DNA from: Squalus acanthias
Lineage: Eukaryota
Assembly (NCBI GenBank): GCA_030390025.1
Contig: JASTWF010000034.1
Span: 1,240,001-1,304,000, forward strand
Length of the DNA stretch: 64,000 nt
Reading direction: 5' to 3'
Shown here one piece after another: positions 353-36,156 of this stretch (the first letter of the stretch is position 1; each line of letters begins with the position of its first letter). The notes under the pieces were generated by a model. It saw only the letters and a list, made by a program, of their open reading frames with translations, did not search any database and was not told the DNA's origin. The position numbers were made by a program, and so were the translations under genes.

Positions 353-362
353 CTGAAAAAGG

Positions 363-9009: not shown

Positions 9010-9340
9010 CGCTTTATAAAGGGTTATAAAGGATTATGCTGGGTTATAAATTATTATAAATGAATATAAAGTATTATAATGATATATAAATGTTGATATT
9101 GGAATATAAAGTGTTATGATGAATTGTTAAGGAATATAAAGGGTTATAATGATCGACAAAGGCTTATAAAGTGTTATAATGATTGACAAAGGATTATAAA
9201 GGGAGTTGAATGTGGTACAAAGTGATGCAAAATATGATAAAGGGACATGACCCTTTATAAATCATTATAATCCTTAATAACCCGTTATACACCTTTTGTA
9301 AATGTTTATTAAGGATTCTAACGTTATAAAGAGTTATAAG
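9010..9340. repeat. AT-rich low-complexity repeat (GGGTTATAAA/ATTATAA-like)
   Basis: Degenerate ttataa(a/t) motifs; a similar tract in the opposite orientation at ~41205-41335. Confidence 0.7.
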
Positions 9341-12300
9341 GCTCCCACTACACTGTCCCATCAAACAGTCCCAGTGCAGGTACAGCATTTGTTAGATACT
9401 TAGTAAAGATCCCTCTACACAATCCCATCAAACACTCCCAGGGCAGGTGCAGCAAGGTTTAGATACAGAGTAATGCTCCCTCGATACAATCCCATCAAAC
9501 ACTCCCAGGGCAGGTACAGCAAGGTTTAGATACAGAGTAAAGCTCCCTCTACACTGTCCCAACACACACTCCCAGGGCAGGTACAGCAAGGTTTAGATAC
9601 AGAGTAAAGCTCTCTCTACACAATCCCATCAAACACTCCCAGGGCAGGTACAGCAAGGTTTAGATACAGAGTAAAGCTCTCTCTACACAATCCCATCAAA
9701 CACTCCCAGGGAAGGTACAGCAAGGTTTAGATACAGAGTAAAGCACTCTCTACACTGTGCCAACAACGATTCCCAGACAGCTACAGCACTAGTTAGATGC
9801 AGAATAAAGCTCCCTCTACACTGTCCCATCAAACACTCCCAGGGCAGGAACAGTACGGTTTATATACAGATTAAAGATCCCTCTACACTGTCCCATCAAA
9901 CATTTCCAGGGCAGGTACAGCACGGGTTAGATACAGAGTAAAGCTTTCGCTACACTGTCCCATCAAACACTCCCAGGGCAGGTAGAGCAATGGTTAGATA
10001 TAGAGTAAAGCTCCCACTGCACTGTCCCATCAAACACTCGCAGGGCAGTTAGTGCATCGGTTAGGTACAGAGTAAAGCTCCCGCTACACTGTCCCATCAA
10101 ACACTCGGAGGGCAGGTACAGCACTGGGTTGGATGCAGAGTAATCAGTGTCCCATCACATATTCCCAGGCGTGTACAGCCCGTATTAGATACTTACTATA
10201 GCTCCCTGTATACTGTGACATCGAACACTCCCAGGCCAGGTACTGCACGGGTAAGATGCAGAGTAAAGCTGCTTCTACACTGCCTCATCAAACACTCCCA
10301 GGGCAGGTACAGCACGGGTTTGATACTGCGTAAAGCTCCCTGTATACTATCACATCAAACACTCCCAGGTCTGGAACAGCACGGGTTAGATGCAGAGTAA
10401 AGACCCCTCCATCCTGTTCCAACAAACACTCCCAGACCAGATACTGCATGGGTTAGATACAGAGTATATCTCACTATACATTGTGCCATCAAACACACCA
10501 AGGGCAGATACAACAATGGTTAGATATAGAGTAGGGCTCCCTCTAAACTGTCCCATTCAGCAGTCCCAGGGAAGGTACAGCAATGGTTAGATACAGAGTA
10601 AAGTTCCCCCGAAACTGCCCCATCAAACACTCCCAGGGCAGGTACAGCACGGGTTAGATGCAGAGTAAAGCTCCCTCTACACTGTCCCATCAAACACTCC
10701 CAGGACAGGTACAGCACAGGTAAGATGCAGAATCCCATCATACAATCCTAGGGCAGGTACTGCAATGGTTAGATATAGAATAAAGCTCCATCTACACTGC
10801 CCCATCAAACACTCGCAGGGCAGGTAATGCACGGGGTTAGATACAGAGTAAAGCTCCCTCTACACTATCCCATCAAACACACCCAGGGCAGGTACAGCAC
10901 GGGTTATATATAGAGTAAAGCTCCCTCTACACTGTCCCATCAAACACTCGCAGGGCAGGTAGTGCACGGGTTAGATACAGAGTAAAGCTCCCTCTACACT
11001 GTGCCATCAAACACTCCCAGGGCTGGTACAGCACAGGTTAGATACAGAGTAAAACTTCCTTTACACTGTCCCATCAAACACTCCCAGGTCAGCTACAGCT
11101 TAGGTAAGATACAGAGTAAAGCTTCCTCTACACTGACCCATCAAACTTTCTCAGGCAGGTACAGCCCGCGTTAGATACCGAATAAAGCTCCCTCTACACT
11201 GTCCCCTCAAACACTCTCAGGGCAAGTAGTGCATGGGTTAGGTACAGAGTAAAGCTCCCTTTACACTGTCCTATCAAAAACTGCCAGAGCAGGTACAGCA
11301 CGGGTTAGATACAGAGTAAAGCTCCCTCTACACTGTCCCATCAAACACTACCAGGGCAGGTACAGCACGGGTTAGATACAGAGTAAAGCTCCCTCTACAC
11401 TGCACCATCAAACACTGCCGGGGCAGGTACAGCACGGGGTTAGATACAGAGTAAAGCTCCCTCTACACTGTCCCATCAAACACTCCCAGGGCAGGTACAG
11501 CACGGGTTAGATACAGAGTAAAGCTCCCTCTACACTGCACCATCAAACACTCCCGGGGCAGGTACAGCACGGGGTTAGATACAGAGTAAAGCTCCCTCTG
11601 CACTATCCCATCAAACAGCACCATGGCAGATACAGCACGGGGTTACATACAGAGTAAATCTCCCTCTACACCGTCCCATCAAACAATCCGAGGGCAGGTG
11701 CAGCACAGGTAAGATGCAGAGTAAAGATCCCTCTACAGAATCCCATCATACACTCCCAGGGCAGGTACTGCAATGGTTAGATATCGAATAAAGCTCTCTG
11801 TACACTGCCCCATCAAACACTCGCAGGGCAGGTACTGGAATGGTTAGATACAGAGTAAAGCTCCCTCTACACTGCCCCATCAAACACTCGCAGGGCAGGT
11901 AATGCACGGGGTTAGATACAGAGTAAAGCTCCCTCTACACTGTCCCATCAAACACTCCCAGGGCAGATACAGCACAGGTTAGATGCAGAATAAGGCTCCC
12001 TCTACACTGCCCAATCGAACACTCTCAGGGCAGGTAAAGCACGGGTTAGGTACAGAGTAAAGCTTCCTCTACACTTTCCCATCAAACAATCCCAGGTCAG
12101 CTACAGCTCAGGTAAGATACAGAGTAAAGCTCCCTCTACACTGCCCAATCGAACACTCGCAGGGCAGGTACAGCACGGGTTAGGTACAGAGTAAAGCTTC
12201 CTCTACACTTTCCCATCAAACACTCCCAGGTCAGCTAGAGCTCAGGTAAGATAAAGAGTAAAGCTTCCTCTACACTGACCCATCAAACTTTCTCAGGCAG

Positions 12301-15293
12301 GTGCAGCCCGCGTTAGATACCGAATAAAGCTCCCTCTACACTGTCCCATCAAACACTCACAGGGCAGGTACAGCACAGGTAAGATACAGAGTAAGGTTGC
12401 CTATACATGTTGCATCAAACACTCTCAGGCCAGTTACAGCACCGGTTTGATGCAGAGTAAAGATCCCTCTACAGAATCCCATCAAACACTCCCAGGGCAG
12501 GTACAGCAATGGTTAGATGAAGAGTAAAGATCCCTCTACAGAATCCCATCAAACACTCCCAGGGCAGGGACAGCAATGGTTAGATACAGAGTAAAGATCC
12601 CTCTAAACTGTCCCATCAAACAGCCCCATGGCAGGTACAGCACGGGGTTAGATACAGAGTAAAGCTCCCTCTACACTGTCCCATCAAACACTCGCAGGAC
12701 AGGTACAGCACGGGTTAGATACAGAGTGAAGCTCCCTCTACACTGTTCCATCAAACAATCGCAGGGCAGTTAGTGCATGGGTTAGGTACAGAGTAAAGCT
12801 CCCGCTACACTGTGCCATTAAACACTCCCAGGGCAGGTACAGCACGGGGTTAGATATAGAGTAAATCTTCCTCTACACTGTCCCATCAAATATTCCCAGG
12901 CATGTACAGCCCGTGTTAGATACTGACTTTTGCTCCCTGTTTACTATCAAATCAAAAATTCCCAGGCCAGGTACTGCACGGGTGAGATACAGAGTATAGC
13001 TCACTATACATTGTGCTATCAAACACACCAAGGGCAGATAGAACAATGGTTAGATACAGAGTAGAGCTCCATCTGCACTGTCCCAACAAACAGTCCCGGG
13101 GCAGGTGCAGCATGGATTAGATATGGAATGAAGCTCCCTCTACACTGTTGCATCAAACACTCCCAGGGCAGGTACAGCACAGGTTAGTTACAGAGCAAAG
13201 TTCCCTCTACACTTTCCCATCAAACACTCCCAGTTTAGATACAGCACAGGTAAGATGCAGAGTAAAGCTACCTATACACTGTCCCATCAAACACTCCCAG
13301 GACAGGTACAGCACAGGTAAGATGCAGAGTAAAGCTACCTATACACTGTCCCATCAAACACTCCCAGGACAGGTACAGCACAGGTAAGATGCAGAGTAAA
13401 GATCCCTCTACAGAATCCCATCATACACTCCCAGGGCAGGTACTGCAATGGTTAGATATAGAATAAAGCTCCCTCTACACTGTCCCATCATACACTCCCA
13501 GGGCAGGTGCAGCACAGGTTAAATGCAGAGTAAAGCTCCCTCTATACTGTCCCATCAAACACTCCCAGGGCAGGTACAGCACGGGTTAGGTACAGAGTAA
13601 AGCTCCCTCTACACTGCCCACCAAACACTCCCAGGGCAGGTACAGCACAGGGTTAGATACAGAGTAAAGCTCCCTCTACACTGTCCCATCAAACACTCCC
13701 AGGGCAGGTACAGCACGGGTTAGATACAGAGTAAAGCTCCCTCTGCACTGCCCCACCAAACACTCCCAGGGCAGGTACAGCACGGGTTAGATACAGAGTA
13801 AAGCTCCCTCTGCAGTGCCCCACCAAACACTCCCAGGGCAGGTACTGCACGGGTTAGGTACAGAGTAAAGCTCCCTCTACACTGGCCCATCAAACACTCC
13901 CAGGGCAGGTGCAGCACGGGTTAGATACAGAGTAAAGCTTCCTCTACACTGTCCCATCAAACACTCCCAGGGCAGGTACAGCACGGGTTAGATACAGAGT
14001 AAAGCTCCCTCTGCACTGCCCCTCAAACACTCTCAGGGCAAGTAGTGCACGGGTTAGGTACAGAGTAAAGCTCCCTCTACACTGGCCCATCAAACACTCC
14101 CAGGGCAGGTGCAGCACGGGTTAGATACAGAGTAAAGCTTCCTCTGCACTGCCCCACCAAACACTCCCAGGGCAGGTACAGCACGGGTTAGATACAGAGT
14201 AAAGCTCCCTCTGCAGTGCCCCACCAAACACTCCCAGGGCAGGTACTGCACGGGTTAGGTACAGAGTAAAGCTCCCTCTACACTGGCCCATCAAACACTC
14301 CCAGGGCAGGTGCAGCACGGGTTAGATACAGAGTAAAGCTTCCTCCACACTGTCGCATCAAACTTTCTCAGGCAGGTACAGCCCGCGTTAGATACCGAAT
14401 AAAGCTCCCTCTACACTGTCCCCTCAAACACTCTCAGGGCAAGTCGTGCATGGATTACATACAGAGTAAAGCTCCCTTTACACTGTCCTATCAAAAACTG
14501 CCAGGGCAGGTAAAGCACCGGTAAGACACAGATTAAAACTCCCTCTACAAAGACCTTCAAACATTCCCAGGAAGATACAGCAGGGTTAGATACAGAGTAA
14601 AGCTCCCTCTACAAAGACCCTTCAAACATTCCCAGGGCAAGTACAGCACGGGGTTAGATGCAGAGTAAAGCTCCCTCTACACCGTCCCATCAAACACTCC
14701 CAGAGCAGGTACAGCACTGTTTTGAAAGAGTAAAGCTCCCTCATCACAGTCCCATTAAATACTCGCAGGGCAGGTAGTGCACGGGTTAGGTACAGAATAA
14801 AGCTCCCTCTACAAAGACCTAGCGAACACTCCCAGGGCAGGTACAGCACGGGTTAGATACAGAGTAAAGCTTCCTCTACAAAGACCCTTCAAATATTCCC
14901 AGGACAAGTACAGCACGGGTTCGATACAGAGTAAAGATCCCTCTAAACTGTCCCATCAAACAGCCCCATGGCAGGTACAGCACGGGGTTAGATACAGAGT
15001 AAAGCTCCCTCTACACCGTCCCATCAAACACTCCCAGAGCAGGTACAGCACTGTTTTGAAAGAGTAAAGCTCCCTCATCACAGTCGCATTAAATACTCGC
15101 AGGGCAGGTAGTGCACGGGTTAGGTACAGAATAAAGCTCCCTCTACAAAGACCTAGCGAACACACCCAGGGCAGGTACAGCACGGGTTAGATACAGAATA
15201 AAGCTTCCTCTACAAATACCCATCAAACACTCCCAGGGCAGATACAGCACGGGTTGGATACACAGTAAAGCTCCCTCTACCCTGTTCCATCAA
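9340..15293 (+). repeat. 67-bp satellite (ACAGCACGGGTTAGATACAGAGTAAAGCTCCCTCTACACTGTCCCATCAAACACTCCCAGGGCAGGT)
   Basis: Directly visible tandem array, ~6 kb, with variable divergence. Confidence 0.97.
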
Positions 15294-18200
15294 ATTAGAG
15301 AGATGTATGCGTAGCTCAAAGACTGGTATCGGAGAAATTGGTTTCGCTTCCTGGGGCACTAGCACCAGTACTGGGGAAAGTGGGATCTGTACCGTTGGGT
15401 TGGTCTTCACCTGAACCGTGCTGGGACCAGTGTTCTGGCGAGTCATATAACTAGGGCGGTAGAGAGGGCTTTCAACTAAATATTGGGGGCCAGGGATCAA
15501 ATCTGGGAAGATGTGGTAAATCAAAGTGTAGAAACAAGACAAGAGAGAAAGGTATTAATATGGGAAATGATAAACAGATCATGACGGGGAGGGATAGAGA
15601 GTACAAATCTAAGAGTAAATCAACAGATAAGGCTAAAGGTTACAAAGATAATAAAAGGACAACACTAAAGGCTCTGTATCTGAATGCACGTAGCATTCGA
15701 AACAAAACAGATGAACTGATGGCGCAAATAGAATTAAATAAGTACAATCTGATAGCCATTACAGAGACATGGCTGCAGGATGACAAACATTGGGACCTGA
15801 ATATTGAAGGGTACATGATATTTAGGAAAAAGTGGAGAGGTGGCTCTGTAAATTAATAATGGTATTAGTGAAATCGAGGGATGACTTAAGTTCAGGAAAC
15901 CAGGATGTAGAAGCGGTTTGGGTAGAGATGAGAAATGATGAAGGCAAGAAGTCACTTGTGGAAGTGCTGTACAGGCCCCCTAACAGTAACCACACGTTAG
16001 GATGGAGTATCAAGGAAGAAATAATGGGAGCTTGTTAGAAAGGTACGGCAATAATCATGGGGGATTTTAATCTACATATAGATGGAAAAATCAGATGGGC
16101 AAAGGTAGCCTACATGAGGAGTTCATAGAATGTTTTTGGGACAGTTTCTTAGAACAGCACGTTCTGGAGCCAACCAGAGAGCAGGCTATAGTAGACACAA
16201 GATCAGATTAATGAATGACCACATAGTGAAGGTGCCCCTAGGTCGCAGCGATCAGAATATGATTGAATTTTACACTCAGTTTGAGGGAGAGAAGATTTGG
16301 TCCAAGACTAGTTTTTTTTCAACTTAAATAAGGGCAATTATGAGGGCATGATAGCAGAGCTAGCTAAAGTGAACTGGCAAACTAGAGTAAGCGATAGGTC
16401 AATAGAGCTGCAGTGGCAAACTTTTAATGGGATATTTCAGAATACACAGAATAGATCCATTCCAACGAGAAAGAAAAATTCCAAGGGGAGGACCCACCAT
16501 CCGTGGTTAACTAAAAAAGTTAAAGATAGTATCAAACTTAAAGAAAAAGCATATAATTGTGCAAAGATGGGTGGCAGGTCAGAAGATTGGACAGAATATA
16601 AACAAACAGCAAAGAATTACTGAAAGATTAATAAGGAGAGAAAAATGAGAGTACGAGAGAAAGCTCGCTAGAAATATAAAAACAGATAGTAAGAGTTTAT
16701 ATAGATATTCTAAAAAGAAAAGAGTTAAGAAAGGGAGCATTGGTCCTATAAAAAGTGAGACTGGGGAATTAATAATGGGAAATAAGGAGATGGCAGTTGA
16801 ATTTAACAGGTATTTTGCATCGGTCTTCACTATAGAGGATACAAGTAACATCCCAGAAACAGCTGTAAATCAGGAAATGGAAGGGAGGGAGGAAGTCAAG
16901 AAAATTACAATCACCAGCGAAGTAGTACTGAGGAAATTGTTGGAGATGCGGGCTGACAAGTCCCCGAGTCCTGATGGACTTCATTCTAGGGTCTTAAAAG
17001 AAGTAGCTAGTGAGATAGTTGATGCGTTGGTTTTAATTTTCCAAAATTCCCTCGATTCGGGGAAGGATCCATTAGATTAGAAATTAGCGATTGTAACTCC
17101 TTTATTCAAAAAGGGAGGGAGACAGAAAGCAGGAAACTACAGGCCAGTTAGCTTAACATCTGTCTTAGGGAAGATGCTAGAAACTATTATTAAAGACGTT
17201 ATAGCAGGGCACTTGTAAAAGTTCAAGGTAATCAGGCAGAGTCAGCATGGTTTTGTGAAAGGGAAATCATGTTTAACCAATTTATTGAAGTTCTTTGAGG
17301 AAGTAACATGTGCTGTGGATAAAGGGGAACCGGTGGATGTACTGTACTTAGATTTCCAGAAGGCATTTGGTAAGGTGCCACATCAAAGGTTATTTCGAAA
17401 AATAAAAGCTCATGGTGTAGGGGGTAACATATTGGCATGGATAGAAAATTGGCTAGCTAACCGGAACAGAGTGTAGGCATAAATGGGTCATTTTCTGCTT
17501 CGCAAATGTAATGTGTAGTGTGCCACAGGGATAATGCTGGGGCCTCAACTTTTTACAATTTATATAAATGACTTGGATGAAGGGACCGAAGGTATGGTTG
17601 CTAAAGTTGCTGATGACAAAAAGATAGGTAGGAAAGTAAATTGTGAAGAGGACATACGGAGGCTACAAAGGTATATAAATCGGTTAAGTGAGTGGGTAAA
17701 GATCTGGCAAATAGAGTATAATGTGTGAAAATGTGCAATTGTGCATTTTGGCAGGAAAAATAAAAGATAAGCATATTATCTAAATGGTGAGAGATTGCAG
17801 AGCTTTGAGATGCAGAGGGTTCTGGGTGTCCTAGTGCATGAATTGCAAAAGGTTAGTATGCAGGTACAGCAAGTAATTAGGACAGCTAATAGAATGTTAA
17901 CGTTTATTGCGAGGGGAATTGAATACAAAAGTAGGGAGTTTATGCTTCAGTTATAGAGGGCATTGGTGAGACCACATCTGGAGTAATGAGTACAGTATTA
18001 GTCTCCTTATTTAAGGAAGGATGTAAATGCGTTGGAAGCAGTTCAGAGAAGGTTTACTAGACTAATAACTGGAATGGGCGGGTTGTCTGATGAGGAAAGG
18101 TTGGGCAGGCTAGGCTTGTATCCACTGGAGCTTAGAAGAGTAAGAGGTGACTTGATTGAAACCTATAAGATCCTGAGGGGTCTTGACAGGGTGGATGCGG

Positions 18201-18535
18201 AGAGGATGTTTCCTCTTGTTGGAGAATCTAGAACTAGGGGTCACTGTTTAAAAATAATGGAGCGCCCATTTTAGACAGAGATGAGGAGAATTTTTTTTCT
18301 CACAGAGGGTCGTGAGTCTTTGGAACTCTGTTCCTCAGAGGGCGGAGGAAGCAGAGTCTTTGAATATTTTTAAGGCGGACGTAGATAGATTCTTGATCAG
18401 CAAGGGGGTGAAAGGTTATCGGGGGTTGGATGGGAATGTGGAGTAATCAGATCAGCCATGATCTTATTGAATGGCGGAACAGGCTTGAGGGACCGAATGG
18501 CCGACTCCTGCTCCTAATTCGTATGTTCGTTATGT
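15294..18535 (+). mobile_element. CR1 LINE: 3' end of ORF1 (esterase-like) plus near full-length disrupted ORF2 (endonuclease + RT) and tail
   Basis: ORF1 remnant ...GLHLNRAGTSVLA...; endonuclease LYLNARSIRNK...[22 protein letters not shown]...YLDFQKAF...LGPQLFTIYINDL...ADD; several stops and frameshifts; tail attcgtatgttcgttatg. Confidence 0.93.
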
Positions 18536-18549
18536 ACCTGCCCCGGGGG

Positions 18550-19240
18550 GATTGGGAGGGGCTTGACCGCTTTAACATTTTTCCAGGCTGCTCTTTGATT
18601 GATTGGCTCCCTGCTCCTGTGTGATGTCACTTGGAAACAGGGCCCCGCCCCTGGTTACGGCCCATCAGTGGGATGTCAGTGTGGGAGGAGCTGGAGTGTC
18701 CGCTGACACTGGCAGTGAGTTTAGTACCAATAAACAGGGCAAAGGGCTGAAAGGAACAATTTAATATTAATGTAAGTAATTCAAATACACATTCATTGCA
18801 AATATAATGAAATTAGATACAATCCCAGTCACAAAAACAGCCCAACTGTATTCCAGGTACTGGATTTGGGATTAATATGAATCATTTTTGTATTGACAGT
18901 CTCTGGGAGTGAGCAATATCTCAGGAAGGTGGAGAGAGAGAAGTCGAATCATCGCCTCACTGACTGGGACTGGAGAAATGTCTCTGGGTTCACAGAGCAG
19001 ATATGGTGGGATCGAGACCCCTCGTTTCGGAGACGGGATAAAACGGAAAGCTTCAACAATGATTGGAAAGGTGAGGAACTTTACTGAGAATTCCAGCAGT
19101 CCAGGATATTGCTGAGGTGAGAGTCTAACCAGATACTGGGAGCTGGTTAACATCTGCCATCAGGCTCGGCCTTTGATGTGGCAAGTTGAGCGGAGCTTAA
19201 CTTGGAGATAAACCTTGCCCGTGCCTCACCCGGGTATGTT
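18550..19240 (+). promoter_or_regulatory. Promoter/exon cassette, copy 2 (ATTGG/CCAAT, GC box, donor at 18715, 171-bp exon 18900-19070)
   Basis: All splice signals intact; exon is open in two frames and has an ATG (MSLGSQSRYGGIETPRFGDGIKRKASTMIGK|). Confidence 0.55.
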
Positions 19241-19389
19241 TGATGCTTACATGTAGAGGGATCTTTATTCTGTTTTCACCCCATGCTGTACCCGAGCTGG
19301 TTGTGCTTCATTGGGTAGTGTCAAGCGAGCTGTACGTTGCATTGAACACATGATGTATCAGAGTTGCTTGTGTTGATGAATCAAATTGG

Positions 19390-19925
19390 AGGGGCCTTTA
19401 CTCTGTACCACACCCGTGCTGTCCCGGCCCTGGGAATGTTTGGTGGGGCAGTGTAGAGGGAGCTTTACTTTGTATCTAACCCGTGCTGTACCTGCCCTGG
19501 GAGTGTTTGATGGGACAGTGTAGAGGGAGCTTTACTCTGTATCTAACCCGTGCTGTACCTGCCCTGGGAGTGTTTGATGGGGCAGTGTAGAGGGAGCTTT
19601 ACTTTGTATCTAACCAGTGCTGTACCTGCCCTGCGAGTGTTTGGTGGGACAGTGTAGAGAGAGCTTTACTCTGTATCTAACCCGTGCTGTACCTGCCCTG
19701 GGAGTGTTTGATGGGGCAGTGCAGAGGGAGCTTTACTCTGTATCTAACCAGTGCTGTACCTGCCCTGGGAGTGTTTGGTGGGACAGTGTAGAGGGAGCTT
19801 TACACTGTATCTAACCCACTGTACCTGCCCTGGGACTGTTTGGTGGGGAAGTGTAGAGGGAGCTTTACTTTGTATCTAACCCACTGTACCTGCCCTGGAG
19901 GTATTTGATGAGAGCTTTACTCTCT
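19390..19925 (-). repeat. 67-bp satellite array, minus orientation
   Basis: Reverse complement of the 67-bp unit in tandem. Confidence 0.93.
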
Positions 19926-20209
19926 AACAGAGGATTACAGGGGGTAGACAGCACAGAACCAGGCCATTCGACCCAACCAGTCCATGCCAGCGTTTATGCT
20001 CCACTCGAGCCTCCTCCCGTCTTACCTCACCTAATTCTATCAACGTAACCCTCTATTCCCTTCTCCCACATATGCCTATCTAACTGCACCTTAAATACAT
20101 CAATACTATTTGCTTCAACCACTCCCTCTGGTAGCGAGTTCCACATTCTCATCACTCTCTGGGTAAAGAAGTTTCTTCTGAATTCCCTTATTGATTTCTT
20201 GGTGACTAT

Positions 20210-23200
20210 TGTGGTAACACAATACAGCTTCCTGTGACTCGAACTTTATTGCATCACTTCCTGTGATTAGTCCAGGATAAATACTGGACTGAGCAGTTGG
20301 ATCCTGGAGAGGCATAGAGTAAGACCTCTTTTGTATGTAGCACCTTTTTAGTTGATTAAAGCTTACTTTAAGTTCACCACGCGTAAGGCTCATTCTTACG
20401 ACAATTTAATCAACTTTGAAAAACTTCGCACTCAAACTTTTTGGACGAACTCGGAACTAAGGATCCAGGGAATCACCCATCATGGAAAACATCCTTAAAC
20501 CATCGCGTCTTGACTTGGACCCAAACACCCCAGCAGCCGGTAAGGTGTGGAAACACTGGTATCGCACGTTTGACAATTTTCTCGAATATTGCAAGGCTGA
20601 TGATGACACAAAGTTGCGGATACTCATCAACTGTGTCACTCCGAATGTATTTCAGTATGTTGAGGAATGGGGCAGTTACGAGGAGGCAATTCGGACGCTT
20701 AAAAGACTATATACTAAGACACCGAATGAGGTCTATGCCAGACATCTACTAGCTACAGCCCAACAAGGGCCGGAGGAATCCATTGATAAATTCCTCCAAG
20801 AGCTTCGCAGACTTAGTATGGACTGTAACTTTCAGGCGGCCTCAGCTGAGCTGTACCGTGAAGAAATGATCCGTGATGCTTTCATCTGCGGGCTTGCCTC
20901 CCCATTTATACGCCAGCGTCTACTGGAAAGTAAGACACTTGAGCTTCAGAGAGCTTATGACATGGCTTGCTCTCTAGATCTGGCAAAAAGAAATGCAGAC
21001 CTTTATACAGTGCCCAGACCTCGGTCTGCTGCCTTAACTACAGTCAGGCAATTTAAGAGGCCACAGGTGAACTCTATTAGGGAGGACTTTATCCCTGACG
21101 ATCAATCTGATGACTTCACTGATGAAGAGGATGATGACCCCACTGTGGCAGCCTCTTGGCAATCTAAGAAATGCTTCTTTTGTGGTGATGAGTTTCACCC
21201 TCGGAAATTCTGCCCTGCTCGCAATGCGTTTTGCAGTCATTGCAACAAAAAGGGTCATTTTGCAAAGGTTTGCCTATCAAGAGCCTCTACGAGGGCTTAT
21301 CAAGCTAAGTCCTACCGAACTGCCCCGGTAAGGGCCTATCAAGATGTTCCGGCTAAAATCTATCGTGCTTCCTCTCGGGTTTTCTCTCGAAGAAACACAC
21401 CTAGAGTTTCAGCCACTCTTTGTGCAACGACACCAATTACAGCTGCTTGTCCTCAGAACCTATTCCATGCAGCTACAAAAGCATCAATTAATGGACATAC
21501 TTTAGATGCCTTAATTGACTCAGGTAGCACTGATAGTTTCATTAGGGAACAGATTGTTGCAGAGTTAAAGCTACATGTTTTCCCATCGGACCAGGCAATT
21601 GCGATGGCTCAGTCATCACTTAATACCAGAATTTCTGGCTTTTGTATGGTTGAAATAACACTTAATGGTCACAGGTATCCCTCCACCCGGCTTTCGGTGC
21701 TCAAGGACTTATGTAGTGATCTTATCTTAGGGCTGGATTTTCAAAAGCAGCATAAGAAGCTCACCATTGAGTTCGGCGGATCCAAACCTGAACTCACTAT
21801 TTCTAATATACGACCTCGATTACCGTTCTGTGCATTGTCAGCAGCTTCACTGGATGAACCCTCACTGTTTACCAGTATCCCTCCTCGATGCAAACCGATT
21901 ATAACAAAGTCACGACGTTTCAGTCAGGAAGACCAGTCTTTTATTGCGGCTGAGATTTCTCGGCTTTTAGCAGAGGATATCATCGAGCCTTGTTCGTCGC
22001 CATGGCGCGCCCAGGTCGTTATTGTTAAGAACCCTCTACAACCTCACAAGAAACGGCTGTGCATTGACTATTCACAGACCATCAATCAATATACGGACTT
22101 GGACGCATACCCATTGCCGCGCATCGATGATATGGTTAATAAACTGGCTGAGTACACGGTGTTCTCAACATATGATCTGAAAAGTGCCTATCATCAGGTA
22201 CCCTTGAAGGTCTCAGACAAGCAGTATACGGCCTTTGAAGCCAATGGACGGCTGTATCAATTTCGTCGCCTCCCCTTTGGGGTCACTAATGGAGTGGCTG
22301 TCTTCCAGCGAGCAATGGATGACCTGGTCAAACAGGAAGACTTGAAGGATACGTTTCCTTATCTGGACAATATTACTGTCGCAGGTCGCAATCAGCGGGA
22401 GCATGACGCCAATCTCCAACGATTTTGGGATGCACTCCAGCACCGTAATTTGACATTAAATGCGGCTAAATCCATTGAGTCACAACCAACCATCAACATC
22501 CTTGGCTATTGTGTGGGCAATGGCATCATTAAACCTGACCCTGAAAGGCTTCGCCCACTCCAAGAACTCCCGCCACCTAAGAATCCGGCCTCCTTGCGCC
22601 GGGCCCTCGGCCTGTTTGCATACTATGCTAAATGGATTCCTAACTTCTCGGACCGAATCCAACCTCTACTGAAGGCCAGCACATTCCCACTAGACACAGC
22701 GGCTGTTGCAGCCTTTAACCTCCTGAAAAAACAGTTGGAGAAAGCGGCTCTTCACTCCATCGATGAGAGTCTTCCTTTTGTTGTTGAGTGTGATGCCTCG
22801 GAGGTGGCGATCTCGGCCACTCTGAATCAGGAAGGTCGTCCGGTGGCATTTTTGTCCAGGACTTTTCAAGGGGCTGAGCTACATTATCCTCCAGTCGAGA
22901 AAGAAGCTACAGCCATCATAGAGGCAGTACGGAAGTGGACTCATCTCCTAGCTCGTCAGCACTTTACCTTAATCACGGACCAGCGATCGGTCGCCTTCAT
23001 GCTCGATAATCGAAAACGGACCAAAATTAAAAATAATAAAATCCAGCTTTGGCGGCTGGAATTGGCCTCTTTTGGTTACACCATCCACTATCGACCTGGC
23101 AAGGAGAATGTGGCTCCGGATACCCTCACACGAGCATTCTGCTCCGCCATGGCACCCTCTACGCTCGTAGACATCCATGATGGGTTGTGTCATCCGGGCG

Positions 23201-24650
23201 TTACTCGCATGCTACACTTCGTGCGGTCCCGAAATCTCCCATTCTCTACCGGGGATGTAAAGAAGATGTGCTCGGACTGCAGAGTCTGTGCGGAATTGAA
23301 ACCTCAGTTTTTCCGCCCCTCGGGTGGTATACTCATACATGCGACCCAGCCAATGCAACGGCTTAGCATCGATTTTAAGGGGCCGTTGCCCTCTTCAACT
23401 CGCAACACTTATCTATTGACCATGGTCGATGAGTATTCCCGTTTTCCGTTTGCCTTTCCCTGCCCCAATATGCTGACGACCACGGTTATCAGCTGCCTTG
23501 AGCAGGTATTTGCTTTCTGTGGCATGGCATCCTATGTTCATTCAGATCGGGGCCCTTCTTTTATGTCAGGAGAACTCAAGGCCTATCTCTCGGAACGGGG
23601 TATTGCTGCCAGCAGAACGACGCCTTATCATCCGGTCGGGAATGGGCAAGTCGAGCGTTTTAACGCTATCATCTGGAATGCGGTACGTCTGGCTTTGAGA
23701 TCTCGGGGCCTACCCAACCAGCAATGGGAAGCAGTACTTCCAGACGCATTACACTCCACACGGTCCCTCCTTTCGACCGCCACAAATACGACGCCTCATG
23801 AACGGTTCTTCCGATTTCAGCGTCGCTCATCCTATGGGATATCTCTCCCGTCGTGGCTGACTGCACCGGGACCAGTGCTACTCCGAAGATATGTCCGGGC
23901 GTCTAAGAATGACCCCCTGGTAGATGAGGTTGAGCTCACTGACGTCAACCCTACCTACGCCTATATTCGGTATCCTGACGGTCGGGAATCTACCGTGTCA
24001 TTGCGGGATCTGGCTCCCTGCCCGCCGAAACATAGAGGGACACCAGGGGATGATATTGTACCAGGCACATCTCTGGGCTCGCCAGGTGCCTCTCATCACG
24101 ATCTGGATCTGACGCCGGCTGGTACCTCACTCCAGCGTGCCGACCTGGGGCAGACTGACTATGAGCCCGTCGGGGCTCGCACGCGCAGCCACGATCCACC
24201 CCGTACCATACGCTCGGAAACGGATCTGCCACAGCCCTGCCCGACACCCGTTCGGGCACCAGTACACAGTCAGGATCGTCCTGACCCCTCACAGAGCGGG
24301 CTGGATCACTCGGACTCTGGTCCACGGCCCGCGGCGGGTAAACGGGCTAGGGGCCCTCTACCGCTACGAGAACCCAAACGGGTGCGGCTCTCCCTCGTCC
24401 GGCGGCTACGAAATGGAGGGAGCATCCCGGCCTCCTAATCTTTTGGGGGGGGAGAATGTGGTAACACAATACAGCTTCCTGTGACTCGAACTTTATTGCA
24501 TCACTTCCTGTGATTAGTCCAGGATAAATACTGGACTGAGCAGTTGGATCCTGGAGAGGCATAGAGTAAGACCTCTTTTGTATGTAGCACCTTTTTAGTT
24601 GATTAAAGCTTACTTTAAGTTCACCACGCGTAAGGCTCATTCTTACGACA
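20210..24650 (+). mobile_element. Full-length Ty3/Gypsy LTR retrotransposon (4441 bp), probably Mag-like lineage
   Basis: 194-bp LTRs 20210-20403 and 24457-24650 (TG...CA), identical by eye; 5-bp TSD ACTAT (20205-20209, 24651-24655); PPT GGGGGGGGAGAA 24445-24456; PR-RT-RH-IN order. Confidence 0.97.
20482..24438 (+). CDS. Gag-Pol polyprotein, 1318 aa, single uninterrupted ORF
   Basis: Two CCHC knuckles (CFFCGDEFHPRKFC, CSHCNKKGHFAKVC); protease LIDSGS; RT (RLCIDY, DLKSAYHQ, LPFG, YLDN); RNase H VECDAS; integrase HHCC (H..LCHPG..CSDCRVC) and D-D-E core (IDFKG, SDRG, ERFN). Confidence 0.95.
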   Translation: MENILKPSRLDLDPNTPAAGKVWKHWYRTFDNFLEYCKADDDTKLRILINCVTPNVFQYVEEWGSYEEAIRTLKRLYTKTPNEVYARHLLATAQQGPEESIDKFLQELRRLSMDCNFQAASAELYREEMIRDAFICGLASPFIRQRLLESKTLELQRAYDMACSLDLAKRNADLYTVPRPRSAALTTVRQFKRPQVNSIREDFIPDDQSDDFTDEEDDDPTVAASWQSKKCFFCGDEFHPRKFCPARNAFCSHCNKKGHFAKVCLSRASTRAYQAKSYRTAPVRAYQDVPAKIYRASSRVFSRRNTPRVSATLCATTPITAACPQNLFHAATKASINGHTLDALIDSGSTDSFIREQIVAELKLHVFPSDQAIAMAQSSLNTRISGFCMVEITLNGHRYPSTRLSVLKDLCSDLILGLDFQKQHKKLTIEFGGSKPELTISNIRPRLPFCALSAASLDEPSLFTSIPPRCKPIITKSRRFSQEDQSFIAAEISRLLAEDIIEPCSSPWRAQVVIVKNPLQPHKKRLCIDYSQTINQYTDLDAYPLPRIDDMVNKLAEYTVFSTYDLKSAYHQVPLKVSDKQYTAFEANGRLYQFRRLPFGVTNGVAVFQRAMDDLVKQEDLKDTFPYLDNITVAGRNQREHDANLQRFWDALQHRNLTLNAAKSIESQPTINILGYCVGNGIIKPDPERLRPLQELPPPKNPASLRRALGLFAYYAKWIPNFSDRIQPLLKASTFPLDTAAVAAFNLLKKQLEKAALHSIDESLPFVVECDASEVAISATLNQEGRPVAFLSRTFQGAELHYPPVEKEATAIIEAVRKWTHLLARQHFTLITDQRSVAFMLDNRKRTKIKNNKIQLWRLELASFGYTIHYRPGKENVAPDTLTRAFCSAMAPSTLVDIHDGLCHPGVTRMLHFVRSRNLPFSTGDVKKMCSDCRVCAELKPQFFRPSGGILIHATQPMQRLSIDFKGPLPSSTRNTYLLTMVDEYSRFPFAFPCPNMLTTTVISCLEQVFAFCGMASYVHSDRGPSFMSGELKAYLSERGIAASRTTPYHPVGNGQVERFNAIIWNAVRLALRSRGLPNQQWEAVLPDALHSTRSLLSTATNTTPHERFFRFQRRSSYGISLPSWLTAPGPVLLRRYVRASKNDPLVDEVELTDVNPTYAYIRYPDGRESTVSLRDLAPCPPKHRGTPGDDIVPGTSLGSPGASHHDLDLTPAGTSLQRADLGQTDYEPVGARTRSHDPPRTIRSETDLPQPCPTPVRAPVHSQDRPDPSQSGLDHSDSGPRPAAGKRARGPLPLREPKRVRLSLVRRLRNGGSIPAS

Positions 24651-25292
24651 ACTATCTTATATTGATGGCCTCTAATTTTGCTCTTCCCCACAAGTGGAAA
24701 CACTCTGTCTGTATCTACTCCATCAAATCCTTTCCTCATTTTAAAGACCTCTATCTGGTCAACCCTCAGCCTTCAAGAGAAAGGAGACCCAGCCTGTTCA
24801 TCCGTTCCTAATATGTATACCTTGCTTTGCTGGTATTATCCATGTAAATCTTCTCCGCACCCTCTCCAGTGCCTCTACATTCTTTTTAGAATATAGCGAC
24901 CAGAACTGTACGCAGCACTCCAAGTGTGGTCTAAACAAGCTTCGATACAAGTTTAGCATAAATTCACTAATTTTCAATTCTACCAATCCAGAAATAAACC
25001 CGAGTGATTGGTTTGCTTTTTATGGCCGTATTAACCTGTGTCGCTACTTTCAGTGATGTGTGTATTTGTACTCCGAGATTCCTTTGCTCCTGTGCCCATT
25101 TTAGATTCTTATTTTCCAAGTAATATGTGACCTCTCTACTTTTCTTACCAAAATGTAACACCTCAGATTTATCTGTTAAATTGCATTTGCCAATTATATG
25201 CCCATTAAAGAGCTATTAGAAATACATAATAAATAATAGCAATCAGTAATGGAAAAGTATGACTATAAATATAACATTTATATCTCTCCCCT

Positions 25293-28200
25293 CTCCCCAG
25301 GACAGAACCCTGGGGAACTCAACTGTAAACCTCCCTCCAGACCCCCAGTACTGAAACCTTGGGAAACTCCACTGTATACCTCCCTCCAGACCCCCAGTAC
25401 TGAACCCTGGAGAGCTCCACTGTATACCTCCCTCCAGACCCCAGTACTGAACACTGGGGAACTCCACTGTATAGCTCCTTCCAGACACCAGTACTGAACC
25501 CTGAGGAACTCCACTGTATACCTCCCTCCAGACACCAGTAAAGAACCCTGGGGAACTCCACTGTATACCTCCCTCCAGCCCCCAGTATTGAAACCTGGGG
25601 AACTAAACTGTTTACCTCCACACAGACAACAGTACTGAACTGTGGGGAACTCCACTGTGTACCTCCCTCCAGACCCCAGTAATGAACCCTGGGGAACTCC
25701 ACTGTATACCTCCCTCCCCCCAGTACTGAACCCTCGGGAACTCCACTGCATACACCCCTCCAGCCCCCAGTACTGAAACCTGGGGAACTAAACTGTTTAC
25801 CTCCACACAGACAACAGTACTGAACTGTGGGGAACTCCACTGTGTACCTCCCTCCAGACCCCAGTAATGAACCCTGGGGAACTCCACTGTATACCTCCCT
25901 CCCCCCAGTACTGAACCCTCGGGAACTCCACTGCATACACCCCTCCAGCCCCCAGTACTGAACCCTGGGGAACTCGACTGGAAACCTCGCTCCAGACCCC
26001 AGTACTGAACCTGGGAGCTCCACTGTATACCTCCCTCCAGCTCCCAGTACTGAACCCTGGGGAACTCCACTGTATACCTCGCTCCAGACCCCAGTACTGA
26101 ACCCTGGGGAACTCCACTATATCCCTCCCTCCAGAAACCATTACTGATCCCTGGGAATCTACAGTGTAAACCTCACTCCAGACACCAGTACAGAACCCTG
26201 GGGAACAGGACTGCATACCTCCACCCAGACACCAGTACTGAATCCTGGGGAACTCCACTGTATACCTCCCTCCAGCCCCCAGTACAGAACCCTGGGGAAC
26301 AGGACTGTGCACCTCCCTTCAGCCCCCAGCACTGATCCCTGGGGAACTCAACTGTATACCGGCCCTCCAGACAGCAGTCCTGAACATTGGGGAATCGCCC
26401 TGTACACCGCCCTCCAGACCCCAATAATGCAACCTTGGGAACTCCACCGGATACAACCCCAGACTCCAGTGCTTAACCCTGGGGAACTCCACTGTATACT
26501 TCCCGCCAGCCACCAGATCTGAACGCTTTGTCACTCCACTGTATAGATCCCCCAGCAGCCAGTACTGAACACTGGGGAATCGTCCTGTAAACCTCTCTCC
26601 AGCCACCCCGTACGGACCCTTGGGGAACTCCACTGTCTATCTCCCTCCAGCCCCTGCAACTCAACCCTGGGGAACTCCACTGTATACCTCCCCCAGCCTC
26701 CAGTACTTAGCTCTCGGGAACTCCACTGTAAACCTCCCTCCAGACCCCAGTACTGAACCCTGGGGAACTCCACTGTATATCTCCCACCAGCCCCTACTAC
26801 TTAACCCTGGGAAACTCCACTTTATACCTCCCTCCAGACCCCAGTACTGAACCCTGGGGAACTCCACTGTATATCTCCCACCAGCCCCTGCTACTGAACC
26901 CTGGGGAACAGCACTGTATACCTCCCTCCAGACCCCAGTACTGAAACCTGGAGAACTCCGCTGTTTACATCCCTCCAGACCCCAGTACGGAACCCTGGAA
27001 ATCTCCACTGTATACCTCCCTCCAGACCCCAGTACTGAACCCTGGGGAACTCCACTGTATACCTACCCCCAGACACCAGTACTGAACCCTGGGGAACTCC
27101 ACTGTATACTTCCCACCAGCACCCAGTACTGAACCCTTGGGAGCTCCAGTGCAGACCTCCCTCCAGACCCCAGTACTGGACCTTGGGGAATTCCACTGTA
27201 TACCTCCCTCCAGCCCCCAGTACTGAACCCAGGGGAACTCCACTGTATACCTCCCTCTAGACACCAGTACTGAACCCTGGGAAACTCCACTGTATACCGC
27301 CCGCCAGCCCACAGTCCAGAACCCTGTGGAACTGCACTGCATACATCCCTGCAGCCCCCAGTACAGCGTACTGGTATGTCCAGTGTTTGCCTACCTCCAG
27401 CCCCCTGTTCTACTCCCAGGGGAACTCGAATATATAACTCCCTTCAGCCCACAGTATTGATCGCTAGTGAACTCCACTGCATACCTACCCCCAGACCCCA
27501 GTACTGAAACCTAGGGAAATCCATTGCAAACCTCACGCCAGCCCCTGCTACTGAACCCTGGGGAACTCCACTGTATACAGCCCTCCAGACCCCAGTATTG
27601 AACCATGGGGAATTGCCCTGCAAACATCGCTCCAGACAACAGTGCTGAACCCTGGGGAAATCCACTATATACCTCCCTCCATACACCAGTCCTGGACCAT
27701 GGGGAACTCGACTGTATACCTCCCTGCAGCACCTGCTACTGAACCCTAGGGAAATCCAATGTATAACTCCCTCCAGACCCCAATACTGAACCCTGGGGAA
27801 CTCCACTGTATACCTCCCTCCAGCCCCGAGAACTGAAACCTGGGGAACTCCACTGTATACCTCCCTCCAGCCCACAGTACTGAACCCTGGGGAACTCCAC
27901 TGTATACCGCCCTAAAGAGCCTGCTACTAAACCCTGGGGAAATCCACTGTTTACCTCCCTGCACCGCACAGCACTGAAGCCTGGGGAACTCCACTGTGTA
28001 CCTCTCTCCAGACCCCAGTGCTGAACCCTGGGGAACTCCACTGTATACCTCCCTCCAGACCCCAGTACTGAACCCTGGGGAACTCCACTGCATACGTCGC
28101 TCCAGACCCGAGTACTGAACCCTGGGGAACTCCACTGTATACCTCCCTCCAGTCCCCAGTACTGAACCCTAGGGAACTCCACTGCATACCTCCCTCCAGA

Positions 28201-31200
28201 CCCCAGTACTGAACCCTGGGGAACTCCACAGTATACCTCCCTCCAGACCCGAGTACTGAACCCTGGGGAACACCACTGAACACCTCCCTCCAGCCCCCAG
28301 CACTGAACCCTGGGGAACTCTACTGGATACCTCCCTCCAGCCCCCAGCACTGAACCATGGGCAACTCCACTGTATACGTCCGACCCGCAGACCCCCAGTA
28401 CTGAAGCCTGGTGAAAACCACTGTTTTCCTCCATCCAGACCACAGTACAGAACCTGGGGAACTCCACTATATACCTCCCTCCAGACCCCAGTACTGAACC
28501 CTGGGCAACTCCACTGCATACGTCCGACCCGCAGACCCACAGTACTGAAGCCTGGTGAAAACCACTGTATACCTCCCTCCAGACCCCAGTACTGAATCCT
28601 GGGGTATTCCACTGTATACCTCCCGCGAGACCCCAGTACTGAACCCTGGGGAACTCCACTGCATACCTCCCCGCCAGACACCAGTAATGAACCCTGGGGA
28701 ACTCGATGGTATCCCTCCCCCCAGACACCAGTAATGAACCCTGGGGAACCCCACTGTATACCTCCCTCCAGACCCCAGTAGTGAACCCTGGGGAACTCCA
28801 CTGTATACCTCCCTCCAGCACCCAGTACTGAACCTTGGGGAACTCCACTGTGTTCCTCCCTCCAGACCCCAGTACTGAACCCTGGGGAACGCCACTGTAT
28901 ACCTCGCTCCAGACCCCAGTACTGAACCTTGGGGAACTCCACTGTTTACCTCCCTCCAGCCCCCAGTACTGAACCTTGGGGAACTCCACTGTGTTCCTCC
29001 CTCCAGACCCCAGTACTGAACCCTGGGGAACTCCACTGTATACCTCGCTCCAGACCCCAGTACTGAACCCTGCGGAACTCCACTGTATACCTCCCTCCAG
29101 ACCCCAGTACTAAACCTTGGGGAACTCCACTTTATACCTCCCTCCAGACCCCAGTACTGAACCCTGGGGAACTCCACTGTATACCTCCCTCCAGACCCCA
29201 GTACTGAACCCTGGGGACCTCCACTGTATACCTCCCTCCATACCCCAGTACTGAACCCTGTGGAACTCCACTGTACACTTCCCTCCAGACCCCAGTACTG
29301 AACCCTGGGGAACTCCACTGTATACCTCCCTCCAGACCCCAGTACTGAACCCTGGGGACCTCCACTGTATACCTCCCTCCAGACCCCAATACTGAACCCT
29401 GTGGAACTCTACTGTACACATCCCTCCAGACCCCAGTACTGAACCCTGGGGAACTCCACTGTATACCTCCCTCCAGACCCCAGTACTGAACCCTGGGGAC
29501 CTCCACTGTATACCTCCCTCCAGACCCCAGTACTGAACCCTGTGGAACTCCACTGTACACCTCCCTCCAGACCCCAGTACTGAACCCTGGGGAACTCCAC
29601 TGTATACCTCCCTCCAGACCCCAGTACTGAACCCTGGGGAACTCCACTGTACACCTCCCTCCAGACCCCAGTACTGAACCCTGGGAACTCCACTGTACAC
29701 CTCCCTCCAGACCCCAGTACTGAACCCTGGGGAACTCCACTGTATACCTCCCTCCAGACCCCAGTACTGAACCCTGGGGAACTCCACTGTACACCTCCCT
29801 CCAGACCCCAGTACTGAACCCTGGGGAACTCCACTGTATACCTCCCTCCAGACCCCAGTACTGAACCCTGTGGAACTCCACTGTATACCTCCCTCCAGAC
29901 CCCAGTACTGAACCCTGGGGAACTCCACTGTATACCTCCCTCCAGACACCAGTACTGAACCCTGGGGAACTCCACTGTATACCTCCCACCAGCCCCCAGT
30001 ACTGAACCCTGGGGAACTCCACTGTATACCTCCATCCAGCCCCCACTACTGAACCCTGGGGAACACCACTGAATACCTCCCTCCAGCCCCCAGTACTGAA
30101 CCCTGGGGAACTCCACTGTATACCTCCCTCCAGACCCCAGTACTGAACCCTGGGGAACTCCACTATATACCTCCCTCCAGACCCCAGTACTGAACCCTGG
30201 GCAACTCCACTGTATACCTCCCTCGAGCCCCCAGTACTGAACCCTGGGGAACTCCACTGTACACCTCCCTCCAGACCCCAGTACTGAACCCTGTGGAACT
30301 CCACTGTACACTTCCCTCCAGACCCCAGTACTGAACCCTGGGGAACTCCACTGTATACCTCCCTCCAGACCCCAGTAATGAACCCAGGGGAACTCCACTG
30401 TATACCTCCCTCCAGCCCACAGTACTGAAACCTGGGGAACTAAACTGTTTACCTCCACACAGACAACAGTACTGAACAGTGGGGAACTCCACTGTGTACC
30501 TCCCTCCAGACCCCAGTAATGAACCCAGGGGAACTCCACTGTATACCTCCCTCCGCCCAGTACTGAACCCTGGGGAACTCCACTGCATACACCCCTCCAG
30601 CCCCCAGTACTGAACCCTGGGGAACTCGACTGGAAACCTCGCTCCAGACCCCAGTACTGAACCTGGGAGCTCCACTGTATACCTCCCTGCAGCTCCCAGT
30701 ACTGAACCCTGGGGAACTCCACTGTATACCTCGCTCCAGACCCCAGTACTGAACCCTGGGGAACTCCACTATATCCCTCCCTCCAGAAACCATTACTGAT
30801 CCCTGGGAATCTACAGTGTAAACCTCACTCCAGACACCAGTACAGAACCCTGGGGAACAGGACTGCATACCTCCACCCAGACACCAGTACTGAATCCTGG
30901 GGAACTCCACTGTATACCTCCCTCCAGCCCCCAGTACAGAACCCTGGGGAACAGGACTGTGCAACTCCCTTCAGCCCCAGCACTGATCCCTGGGGAACTC
31001 AACTGTATACCGGCCCTCCAGACAGCAGTCCTGAACATTGGGGAATCGCCCTGTACACCGCCCTCCAGACCCCAATAATGCAACCTTGGGAACTCCACCG
31101 GATACAACCCCAGACTCCAGTGCTTAACCCTGGGGAACTCCACTGTATACTTCCCGCCAGCCACCAGATCTGAACGCTTTGTCACTCCACTGTATAGATC

Positions 31201-34200: not shown

Positions 34201-36156
34201 CCACTGTACACTTCCCTCCAGACCCCAGTACTGAACCCTGGGGAACTCCACTGTATACCTCCCTCCAGACCCCAGTACTGAACCCTGGGGAACTCCACTG
34301 TACACTTCCCTCCAGACCCCAGTACTGAACCCTGGGTAACTCCACTGTACACCTCCCTCCCGACCCCAGTACTGAACCCTGGGGAACTCCACTGTATACC
34401 TCCCTCCAGACCCCAGTACTGAACCCTGGGGAACTCCACTGTACACCCCACTCCAGACCCCAGTACTGAACCCTGGGGAACTCCACTGTATACCTCCCTC
34501 CATACCCAGTACTGAACCCTGTGGAACTCCACTTTATACCTCCCTCCAGACCCCAGTACTGAACCCTGGGGAACTCCACTGTGTACCTCCCTACAGACAC
34601 CAGTACTGTACCCTGGGGAACTCCACTGTATACCTCCCACCAGCCCCCAGTACTGAACCCTGGGGAACTCCACTGTATACCTCCATCCAGCCCCCACTAC
34701 TGAACCCTGGGGAACACCACTGAATACCTCCCTCCAGCCCCCAGTACTGAACCCTGGGGAACTCCACTGTATACCTCCCTCCAGACCCCAGTACTGAACC
34801 CTGGGGAACTCCACTATATACCTCCCTCCAGACCCCAGTACTGAACCCTGGGCAACTCCACTGTATACCTCCCTCGAGCCCCCAGTACTGAACCCTGGGG
34901 AACTCCACTGTACACCTCCCTCCAGACCCCAGTACTGAACCCTGTGGAACTCCACTGTACACTTCCCTCCAGACCCCAGTACTGTACCCTGGGGAACTCC
35001 ACTGTATACCTCCCTCCAGACCCCGGTACTGAACCCTGGGGAAATCCACTGTATACCTCCCTCCAGACCCCAGTACTGAACCCTGGGGAACTCCACTGTA
35101 CACTTCCCTCCAGACCCCAGTACTGAACACTGGGTAACTCCACTGTACACCTCCCTCCCGACCCCAGTACTGAACCCTGGGGAACTCCACTGTATACCTC
35201 CCTCCAGACCCCAGTACTGAACCCTGGGGAACTCCACTGTACACCCCACTCCAGACCCCAGTACTGAACCCTGGGGAACTCCACTGTATACCTCCCTCCA
35301 TACCCAGTACTGAACCCTGTGGAACTCCACTTTATACCTCCCTCCAGACCCCAGTACTGAACCCTGGGGAACTCCACTGTATACCTCCCTACAGACACCA
35401 GTACTGTACCCTGGGGAACTCCACTGTATACCTCCCACCAGCCCCCAGTACTGAACCCTGGGGAACTCCACTGTATACCTCCATCCAGCCCCCAGTACTG
35501 AACCCTGGGGAACTCCACTGTATACCTCCATCCAGCCCCCAGTACTGAACCCTGGGGAACACCACTGAATACCTCCCTCCAGCCCCCAGTACTGAACCCT
35601 GGGGAACTCCACTGTATACCTCCCTCCAGACCCCAGTACTGAACCCTGGGGAACTCCACTATATACCTCCCTCCAGCCCCCAGTACTGAACCCTGGGCAA
35701 CTCCGCTGTATACGTCCGACCCGCAGACCCCCAGTACTGAAGCCTGGTGAAAACCACTGTATACCTCCCTCCAGACCCCAGTACTGAACCTGGGGAACTC
35801 CACTGCATACCTCCCCGCCAGACACCAGTAATGAACCCTGGTGAACTCGATGGTATCCCTCCCCCGAGACACCAGTAATGAACCCTGGGGATCTCCACTG
35901 TATACCTCCCTCCAGCCCCCAGTAGTGAATCCTTGGGAACTCCACTGTACACCTCCCTCCAGCCCCCAGTACTGAACCCTGGGGAAATCCACTGTATACC
36001 TCCCTCCAGCCCCAGTACTGAACCCTGGGGAACTCCACTGTACACCTCCCAACAGCCCCCAATACTAAACCCTGGAGAACTCCATTGTACACTTCCCTGC
36101 AGCCCGCAGTACTGAACCTTGGGGAACTCCACTGTATATCTCCCTCCAGTCCCAGT
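25293..36156 (-). repeat. 47-bp satellite (plus strand CCCCAGTACTGAACCCTGGGGAACTCCACTGTATACCTCCCTCCAGA) derived from CR1 RT coding sequence; runs into the gap
   Basis: Visible tandem array; minus-strand translation cycles every 47 aa (3 units) and contains WREVYSGVPQGSVLG; includes a ~4.65-kb tandem duplication. Confidence 0.95.

Follow-up and report, generated by a model that had tools for sequence, protein, structure and literature searches.

The Ty3/Gypsy retrotransposon detected in the analysed window (a 64,000-nt stretch of Squalus acanthias DNA) and the clade to which it belongs probably prime reverse transcription with their own RNA and not with a tRNA. Self-priming, suggested in the original prediction for this element, was strongly supported by comparison, as compensatory conservation of the pairing was found in about 25 families and no tRNA site was present. 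The cleavage, the start site and the nuclease proposed below would follow the model of Tf1.

The element occupied positions 20210–24650 of the window and was a complete LTR retrotransposon of 4.4 kb with a single ORF, all of its parts being located on the forward strand. Its assignment to Ty3/Gypsy was based on the TG...CA LTRs, the target-site duplication, the polypurine tract and the order of protease, reverse transcriptase (RT), RNase H and integrase. The 5' LTR (20210–20403) and the 3' LTR (24457–24650), each of 194 bp, were identical, with the identical run of 195 nt including the first base of the ACTAT target-site duplication (20205–20209 and 24651–24655). The gag-pol ORF (20482–24438) encoded 1318 aa from the ATG at 20482, and its translation combined with Pfam analysis revealed gag with two CCHC knuckles, protease, RT with a YLDN motif, RNase H and integrase. 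No chromodomain was found in this ORF in the Pfam scan, so both the two knuckles and the missing chromodomain were as claimed. The polypurine tract (24445–24456) ended in AA immediately before the 3' LTR. With AA preceding the TG of the LTR and AT following the CA of the 5' LTR, the predicted overhangs were AA and AT, which are not mirror images; this junction pattern was based on the Squalus element and L035, L036, L051, L065, L069 and L206–L208.

The Squalus element is a member of a young and abundant family. Among 844 candidate genomic matches to 20210–20480, all 40 that were scored showed 100% identity, and 30 of 30 fetched genomic copies had distinct flanks and the same LTR–PBS junction. 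A pattern of 34 places spanning this junction gave 1,184 genomic matches (0 in the control). In the first 100 of the junctions listed, the primer binding site (PBS) was the same in 99 and differed by one base in one, which was too little for a test of re-copying within the family. Copies spaced by about 4.25–4.3 kb formed tandem arrays with a common LTR (G000:C1:566448-575212, and also pairs on C5 and C4).

As claimed originally, TGG was absent after the 5' LTR. The segment 20405–20415, separated from the LTR by a single base (A20404), is the predicted PBS and was confirmed to be the exact reverse complement of the LTR segment 20350–20360, referred to below as the arm and predicted to act as the self-primer. 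The pairing ended at 11 nt on both sides with T:T as the next pair, the arm started at an initiator-like T|A step and its 3' end was formed by ATTAAA (20355–20360), all in line with the original description. A complement of at least 11 nt to a word placed 0–4 nt past the LTR was obtained in 10 of 20,000 dinucleotide shuffles of the LTR. A chance origin of the pairing was rejected on the basis of these shuffles and of the cross-family permutations described below. The RNA from 20350 to 20420 was predicted to fold into a three-way junction closed by the arm/PBS stem (−15.4 kcal/mol, z −3.0), with a hairpin starting from the first base 3' of the arm (20361–20373) and stacking on this stem at the predicted cut between 20360 and 20361. 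A second predicted stem-loop was located in U5 just 5' of the LTR end (20382–20400), and it appeared in the folds of some but not all relatives. The arm was present in both LTRs (the second copy, with its poly(A) hexamer, at 24597–24607, had no PBS partner downstream). Because the partner lay outside the LTR, the stem would mask the poly(A) hexamer of the 5' LTR copy only.

The protein search yielded 255 full-length homologs. Among the 120 listed, identity was 47–66% where almost the full length aligned, the named sources included shrimp, woodlouse, sea anemone, corals, snail, fluke and nematode, and two CCHC knuckles were present in 114. In a metagenome scan with a gag-led alignment, 80 loci were found, and 85 loci were finally examined: the Squalus element, 74 of the 80 metagenome loci and 10 of 60 loci from its own genome. 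The omitted loci were the other 50 own-genome ones, which were near-identical, and six metagenome loci with the gag match at the contig edge (L034, L078, L086, L092, L101 and L110), of which L034 had a 14-bp stem at the contig end when inspected by eye. Scans of viral contigs revealed no relative. Searches of the own genome with two distant gag queries added only two further families of the clade (L206–L209 and L111–L170) with 13-bp and 12-bp stems, one of them large and with many 1315-codon frames.

The 85 loci formed 30 clusters at 80% gag DNA identity, each represented by its best-pairing member. A perfect stem of 9–18 bp between the LTR and the PBS was found in 25 of the 30 clusters, and TGG followed the LTR in none of these 25 families. 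The 3' end of the arm lay 23–71 nt before the LTR end, and when a gap of 0–3 nt was allowed, the best stem began 1 nt past CA in nearly all loci. The LTR ends were confirmed by a two-LTR comparison for the Squalus element, L035, L036/L061, L065, L074, L107, L206, L207 and L208, the CA of other families being assumed. Among the five clusters that did not pass, three were unjudgeable (the contig started too near gag or the gag start was not located) and two had 10 of the first 12 pairs. Broken stems were common in older copies within clusters, as expected from decay after insertion.

The stem had a mean length of 14.0 with the family's own LTR versus 5.2 with LTRs of other families, and the self value was reached by 10 of 600 cross-family pairs. 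The summed stem length was 351 versus a maximum of 210 in 100,000 permutations, although p-values from such comparisons overstate independence since the families share ancestry. As controls served five elements with two LTRs each, taken from 12 fetched regions of the same genome, which we take to be Mag-type from their motifs. In all five, TGG lay no more than a few bases from the LTR, and self-complementarity at their LTR end was at most 7 nt. One young Mag-type family of this genome (L201, L202) had one CCHC knuckle, 224-bp LTRs, a TGG PBS and many copies with a 1335-codon frame.

The covariation of the two 11-mers foreseen in the original prediction was indeed observed, with compensatory changes in about 25 families. 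In an alignment of 23 families, 75 two-sided and no one-sided changes were counted over 13 core pairs; the alignment was cut at the stem ends and used the stem as its anchor, which biases these counts in favour of the stem. Shifting the partner destroyed the covariation signal, and RNAalifold recovered the arm/PBS stem unaided. When mapped onto a gag tree with 26 rows, the 11 leading pairs required 49 changes, with equal numbers of changes in the arm and the PBS at 10 of 11 positions. Among 308 stem cells from 28 families, 304 were Watson–Crick pairs, one was G·U and three were mismatches, and when G·U was permitted in the search, the arm was found at the same position in 25 of 25 families. 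The adjacent hairpin had G·U in 17 of 94 pairs (versus 1 of 308 in the stem, Fisher p 9e-11). G·U is tolerated in a helix that is under selection for RNA shape alone, and its near-absence from the stem is more in line with a PBS rewritten from an RNA primer in each cycle.

The same data bear on the possibility that a host tRNA, a tRNA half or another fixed small RNA primes synthesis, with the match to the LTR being incidental. The 26 families had 20 distinct 11-mers, each matching its own LTR, so one tRNA cannot serve all of them, and the covariation largely refutes a fixed primer. A genome-wide search with the 11-mer and a T-loop pattern gave four matches (11 in the control), none of them inside a tRNA. 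The comparison of the PBS with host tRNAs by this pattern revealed no match, and the direct screen of host tRNAs was partial (63 tRNA loci scored, 15 checked, Lys and Cys types only). Half-tRNA priming without TGG has a precedent in Copia lineages (accessible text of PMC6317226), but for the Squalus clade a fixed small RNA as the primer is extremely improbable.

Under self-priming, transcription would start at 20350 or a few bases 5' of it, and the 5' end of the RNA would fold onto the PBS. A nuclease, presumably RNase H of the element by analogy with Tf1, would cut between 20360 and 20361, beside the stacked hairpin, and the freed piece would remain on the PBS and prime a minus-strand strong-stop product about 44 nt long. 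In the standard retroelement cycle, the plus-strand strong-stop step copies the primer into the PBS. The same step would here rewrite the PBS from the LTR arm and keep the strict Watson–Crick match. As the arm ends in the poly(A) hexamer in most families, the stem would also hide this signal, though solely in the 5' LTR.

Of 26 rows, 22 had a YR step 11 or 12 nt 5' of the predicted cut (background 54%), which supports an initiator at that place. In 21 of 22 families, the Squalus element being the exception, the paired region reached 1–7 nt beyond the YR purine on its 5' side. This is at odds with a capped primer of exactly 11 nt and would call for upstream or mixed starts. Part of the extra 5' pairing may be a chance match of the T-rich initiator with the A-rich sequence before the ATG. 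A fixed rule of 11 nt from the cap is thus doubtful, and the exact prediction of an 11-nt primer starting at A20350 would be valid at best for the Squalus family. In a sister LTR variant present in two public assemblies, an additional A was located just 5' of the arm and would form a twelfth pair, given the same PBS. Among the sequencing runs recorded as RNA, none contained the stretch, and mapping of the one raw RNA run gave 0 reads. Judged from these sequences, the primer is probably 11–13 nt long or longer, transcription starting at mixed positions or slightly further upstream. The gag ATG was located 15–22 nt from the PBS start in many relatives (L035, L047, L061 and others) and 77 nt from it in the Squalus element. 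At the shorter distance, the primer stem would adjoin the start codon and could affect translation.

The bases directly 3' of the arm were GCCT in 15 and ACCT in four of 25 families, and they paired with a downstream AGGY-type word, forming a hairpin of at least 4 bp in 20 of 28 families. Its summed stem length over 26 families was 106 versus 68.6 expected, with none of 2000 shuffles as high. In the Squalus element alone, the hairpin had p=0.15, and it was weak or absent in some families, including the two other ones from the Squalus genome. No duplex with sequence 3' of the PBS was seen in the fold of 20350–20470 of the Squalus element.

This hairpin is relevant to the source of the primer, which might also be element RNA acting in trans, i.e., an abortive or prematurely ended LTR transcript, a transcript of solo LTRs or the 3' copy of R. 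The same arm is present in both LTRs, more than 1,000 genomic copies exist, and covariation with strict Watson–Crick pairing would be equally expected. On the other hand, the conserved hairpin, which stacks precisely where the arm ends on its 3' side, suits the recognition of a folded structure in cis, for which the predicted fold is stable. In addition, the poly(A) cut lies 10–30 nt past the hexamer, and cleavage at the last base of the hexamer is not expected from polyadenylation. A primer supplied in trans is considered very unlikely.

The position of the arm raises another possibility, namely that the stem is an RNA regulatory structure masking the poly(A) signal of the 5' LTR, with priming achieved by other means. 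In its favour, ATTAAA or AATAAA formed the 3' end of the arm in 19 of 25 families, only the 5' copy is covered because the partner is located beyond the LTR, and 21 of 22 families showed pairing that continued past the initiator-like purine. The polyA hairpin of HIV-1 hides the poly(A) signal of its 5' LTR in a comparable way. Four families (L056, L072, L073 and L089) nevertheless retained the stem with neither AATAAA nor ATTAAA in the 330 nt examined, so masking alone is insufficient as an explanation. The partner was also fixed 1 nt past the LTR end, a constraint needless for a mask but matching the place where a primer must sit to set the DNA end, which indicates that masking is not the whole function. 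Considering further that G·U was nearly absent, unlike in the adjacent hairpin, and that no tRNA site remains for priming (TGG in 0 of 25 families), masking with another mode of priming appears very unlikely.

The claim that the element is not chromoviral was backed by its domain content, as a chromodomain was missing not only from the Squalus ORF but also from the 33 full-length homologs scanned and from the precomputed domains of the 120 listed homologs. The description of the element as Mag-like was not supported. Its RT/RNase H was only 27–32% identical to that of the tRNA-primed Mag-type elements in this genome, and long branches lay between the two groups. The Cigr-1 and Osvaldo clades likewise carry two CCHC knuckles (supplement of PMC2774666), so this number is not diagnostic of Mag. 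In a quick tree of 38 rows, a long branch (SH-aLRT 97) separated the 31 members of the clade, which grouped together, from the TGG elements. This tree was rooted at the midpoint, where long branches meet, and contained six Mag-type rows, no named references and no Mag C-clade; it also included a half-length row of an insect-associated Gypsy element (33%) from a plasmid collection. One record labelled as a Wolbachia plasmid, L259 (NZ_CP087956.1), turned out to be a circular Gypsy-type retrotransposon sequence of 5.3 kb, which probably derives from the insect host.

Against Ty3, the RT/RNase H of the Squalus element scored 182.7 bits and that of a Mag-type element 207.4 bits. A one-residue insertion relative to Ty3 in the DY..T.N motif of RT was common to the Squalus clade and the Mag-type elements of the genome, and neighbours in a protein language model were named K02A2.6-like. 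At the E-values set, Pfam SH3_Tf2-1 and Retrotrans_gag had no match in the own genome, and Pfam Chromo had 12 short-frame matches there.

The supplement row for the Cigr-1 clade (PMC2774666) gives two CCHC knuckles, an ILG protease motif, no GPY/F, no chromodomain and no env. All these features were found in the Squalus ORF (translation inspected by eye and Pfam). Cigr-1, described from Ciona intestinalis and also from molluscs and annelids, has been reported from Biomphalaria glabrata in a supplement row of PMC6238403, and the Squalus-element clade has members in the same snail (P0119 cluster). Compared by listed features and not by sequences, Cigr-1 is a candidate identity of the clade, to be taken as a lead only. 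A motif search in the available supplements of PMC6238403, PMC3670739, PMC2774666 and PMC13524379 gave no sequence of the clade. The partly accessible literature contained no statement on Cigr-1 priming, and the main text of the mollusc and annelid surveys does not mention PBSs.

Self-priming among Ty3/Gypsy elements has been described for the chromoviruses Tf1/Tf2 of Schizosaccharomyces pombe, Tj1 and the Tf1/sushi group including Tcn1 (accessible text of PMC7175516, PMC10085805, PMC4600332, PMC5341516 and PMC6317226). Tf1 primes with its own first 11 bases after an RNase H cut between bases 11 and 12 (PMC7175516, available sections), and in its 'pretzel' structure extra helices beside the primer duplex use sequence adjacent to the PBS (PMC10085805, available sections). 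The Squalus clade resembles Tf1/sushi in having no tRNA PBS, a PBS that follows the 5' LTR directly and is complementary to about 11 nt of LTR sequence, additional helices adjoining the primer duplex and the Ty3/Gypsy domain order. It differs in the missing chromodomain, the two CCHC knuckles, the mostly YxDN RT and the primer arm ending in the poly(A) hexamer (19 of 25 families). Where the Tf1 pretzel has a PBS-flanking duplex, the Squalus element forms its second helix as a local hairpin on the 3' side of the primer, and the mechanism proved experimentally for Tf1 is inferred here from sequence comparison. The Squalus clade is likely to work like Tf1, yet it fails the chromodomain test for Tf1/sushi membership.

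In the Ty1/Copia TAR lineage (Houba, Osr-1), self-priming has been predicted from an LTR complement of at least 10 nt starting 0–5 nt past the 5' LTR (PMC6317226, accessible part). The same sequence criterion applies to the Squalus clade, but the TAR lineage belongs to another superfamily and to plant hosts. The Mag lineage (A-, B- and C-clades) shares two CCHC knuckles, the lack of a chromodomain and aquatic-animal hosts with the Squalus clade, whereas Mag-type elements of the same genome carry TGG PBSs. The literature, as far as accessible, locates self-priming in Tf1/sushi, Tcn1 and the Copia TAR lineage. Its occurrence in a chromodomain-less animal Gypsy clade was not found in the accessible portions of the sources searched, including PMC3601003, PMC6934838, PMC6317226, PMC5006619, PMC6238403, PMC5341516, PMC10085805, PMC2774666, PMC8556966, PMC3670739, PMC4600332, PMC13524379, PMC7175516 and PMC2148107; Repbase, GyDB and most subscription papers were outside this scope, so a prior description is possible.

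The independence of self-priming in the Squalus clade from Tf1/sushi is likely. The fuller proposal has about an even chance of being correct: a widespread animal Ty3/Gypsy clade would have evolved self-priming apart from Tf1/sushi, using as the primer the part of R with the initiator and the poly(A) signal. Cleavage of this part at a helix junction would let one fold remove the 5' poly(A) signal and make the primer, to be extended by an RT that naturally has YxDN at its active site. If self-priming is true for this second, abundant, chromodomain-less animal clade, tRNA-free priming either arose repeatedly or is ancestral; hairpin priming has been raised as a possible early state (PMC3601003, accessible part). 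It would also account for a class of elements annotated with no PBS found and provide a simple signature for their detection. With more than 1,000 near-identical copies in one genome, the start site, the cut site and the primer should be measurable from natural tissue.

The active site of RT represents a second puzzle. The motif in the Squalus element was YLDN and not YxDD (22360–22371 of the window), and in the 120 listed homologs the last residue was N in 84 and D in 25, with the pattern unmatched in 11. In Ty1, the same substitution leaves polymerase activity but abolishes transposition (PMC2148107, available sections), and the YLDN-carrying Squalus family has nonetheless expanded recently. 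The literature search gave no paper containing both 'YLDN' and 'reverse transcriptase'.

Apart from the element, the window contained two RT-bearing fragments (RVT_1), probably of the LINE type, at 50627–51352 and 55475–56638. Long minisatellite arrays were located at 362–4765 (units of 30 nt), 9337–15294 (67 nt), 25295–36153 (47 nt), 39432–41032 (27 nt) and 42221–45931 (32 nt), and long inverted duplications linked the regions of about 15061–19549 and 58080–62735. An open frame of 309 aa at 38440–39369 matched the rhodopsin-type 7-transmembrane receptor family.
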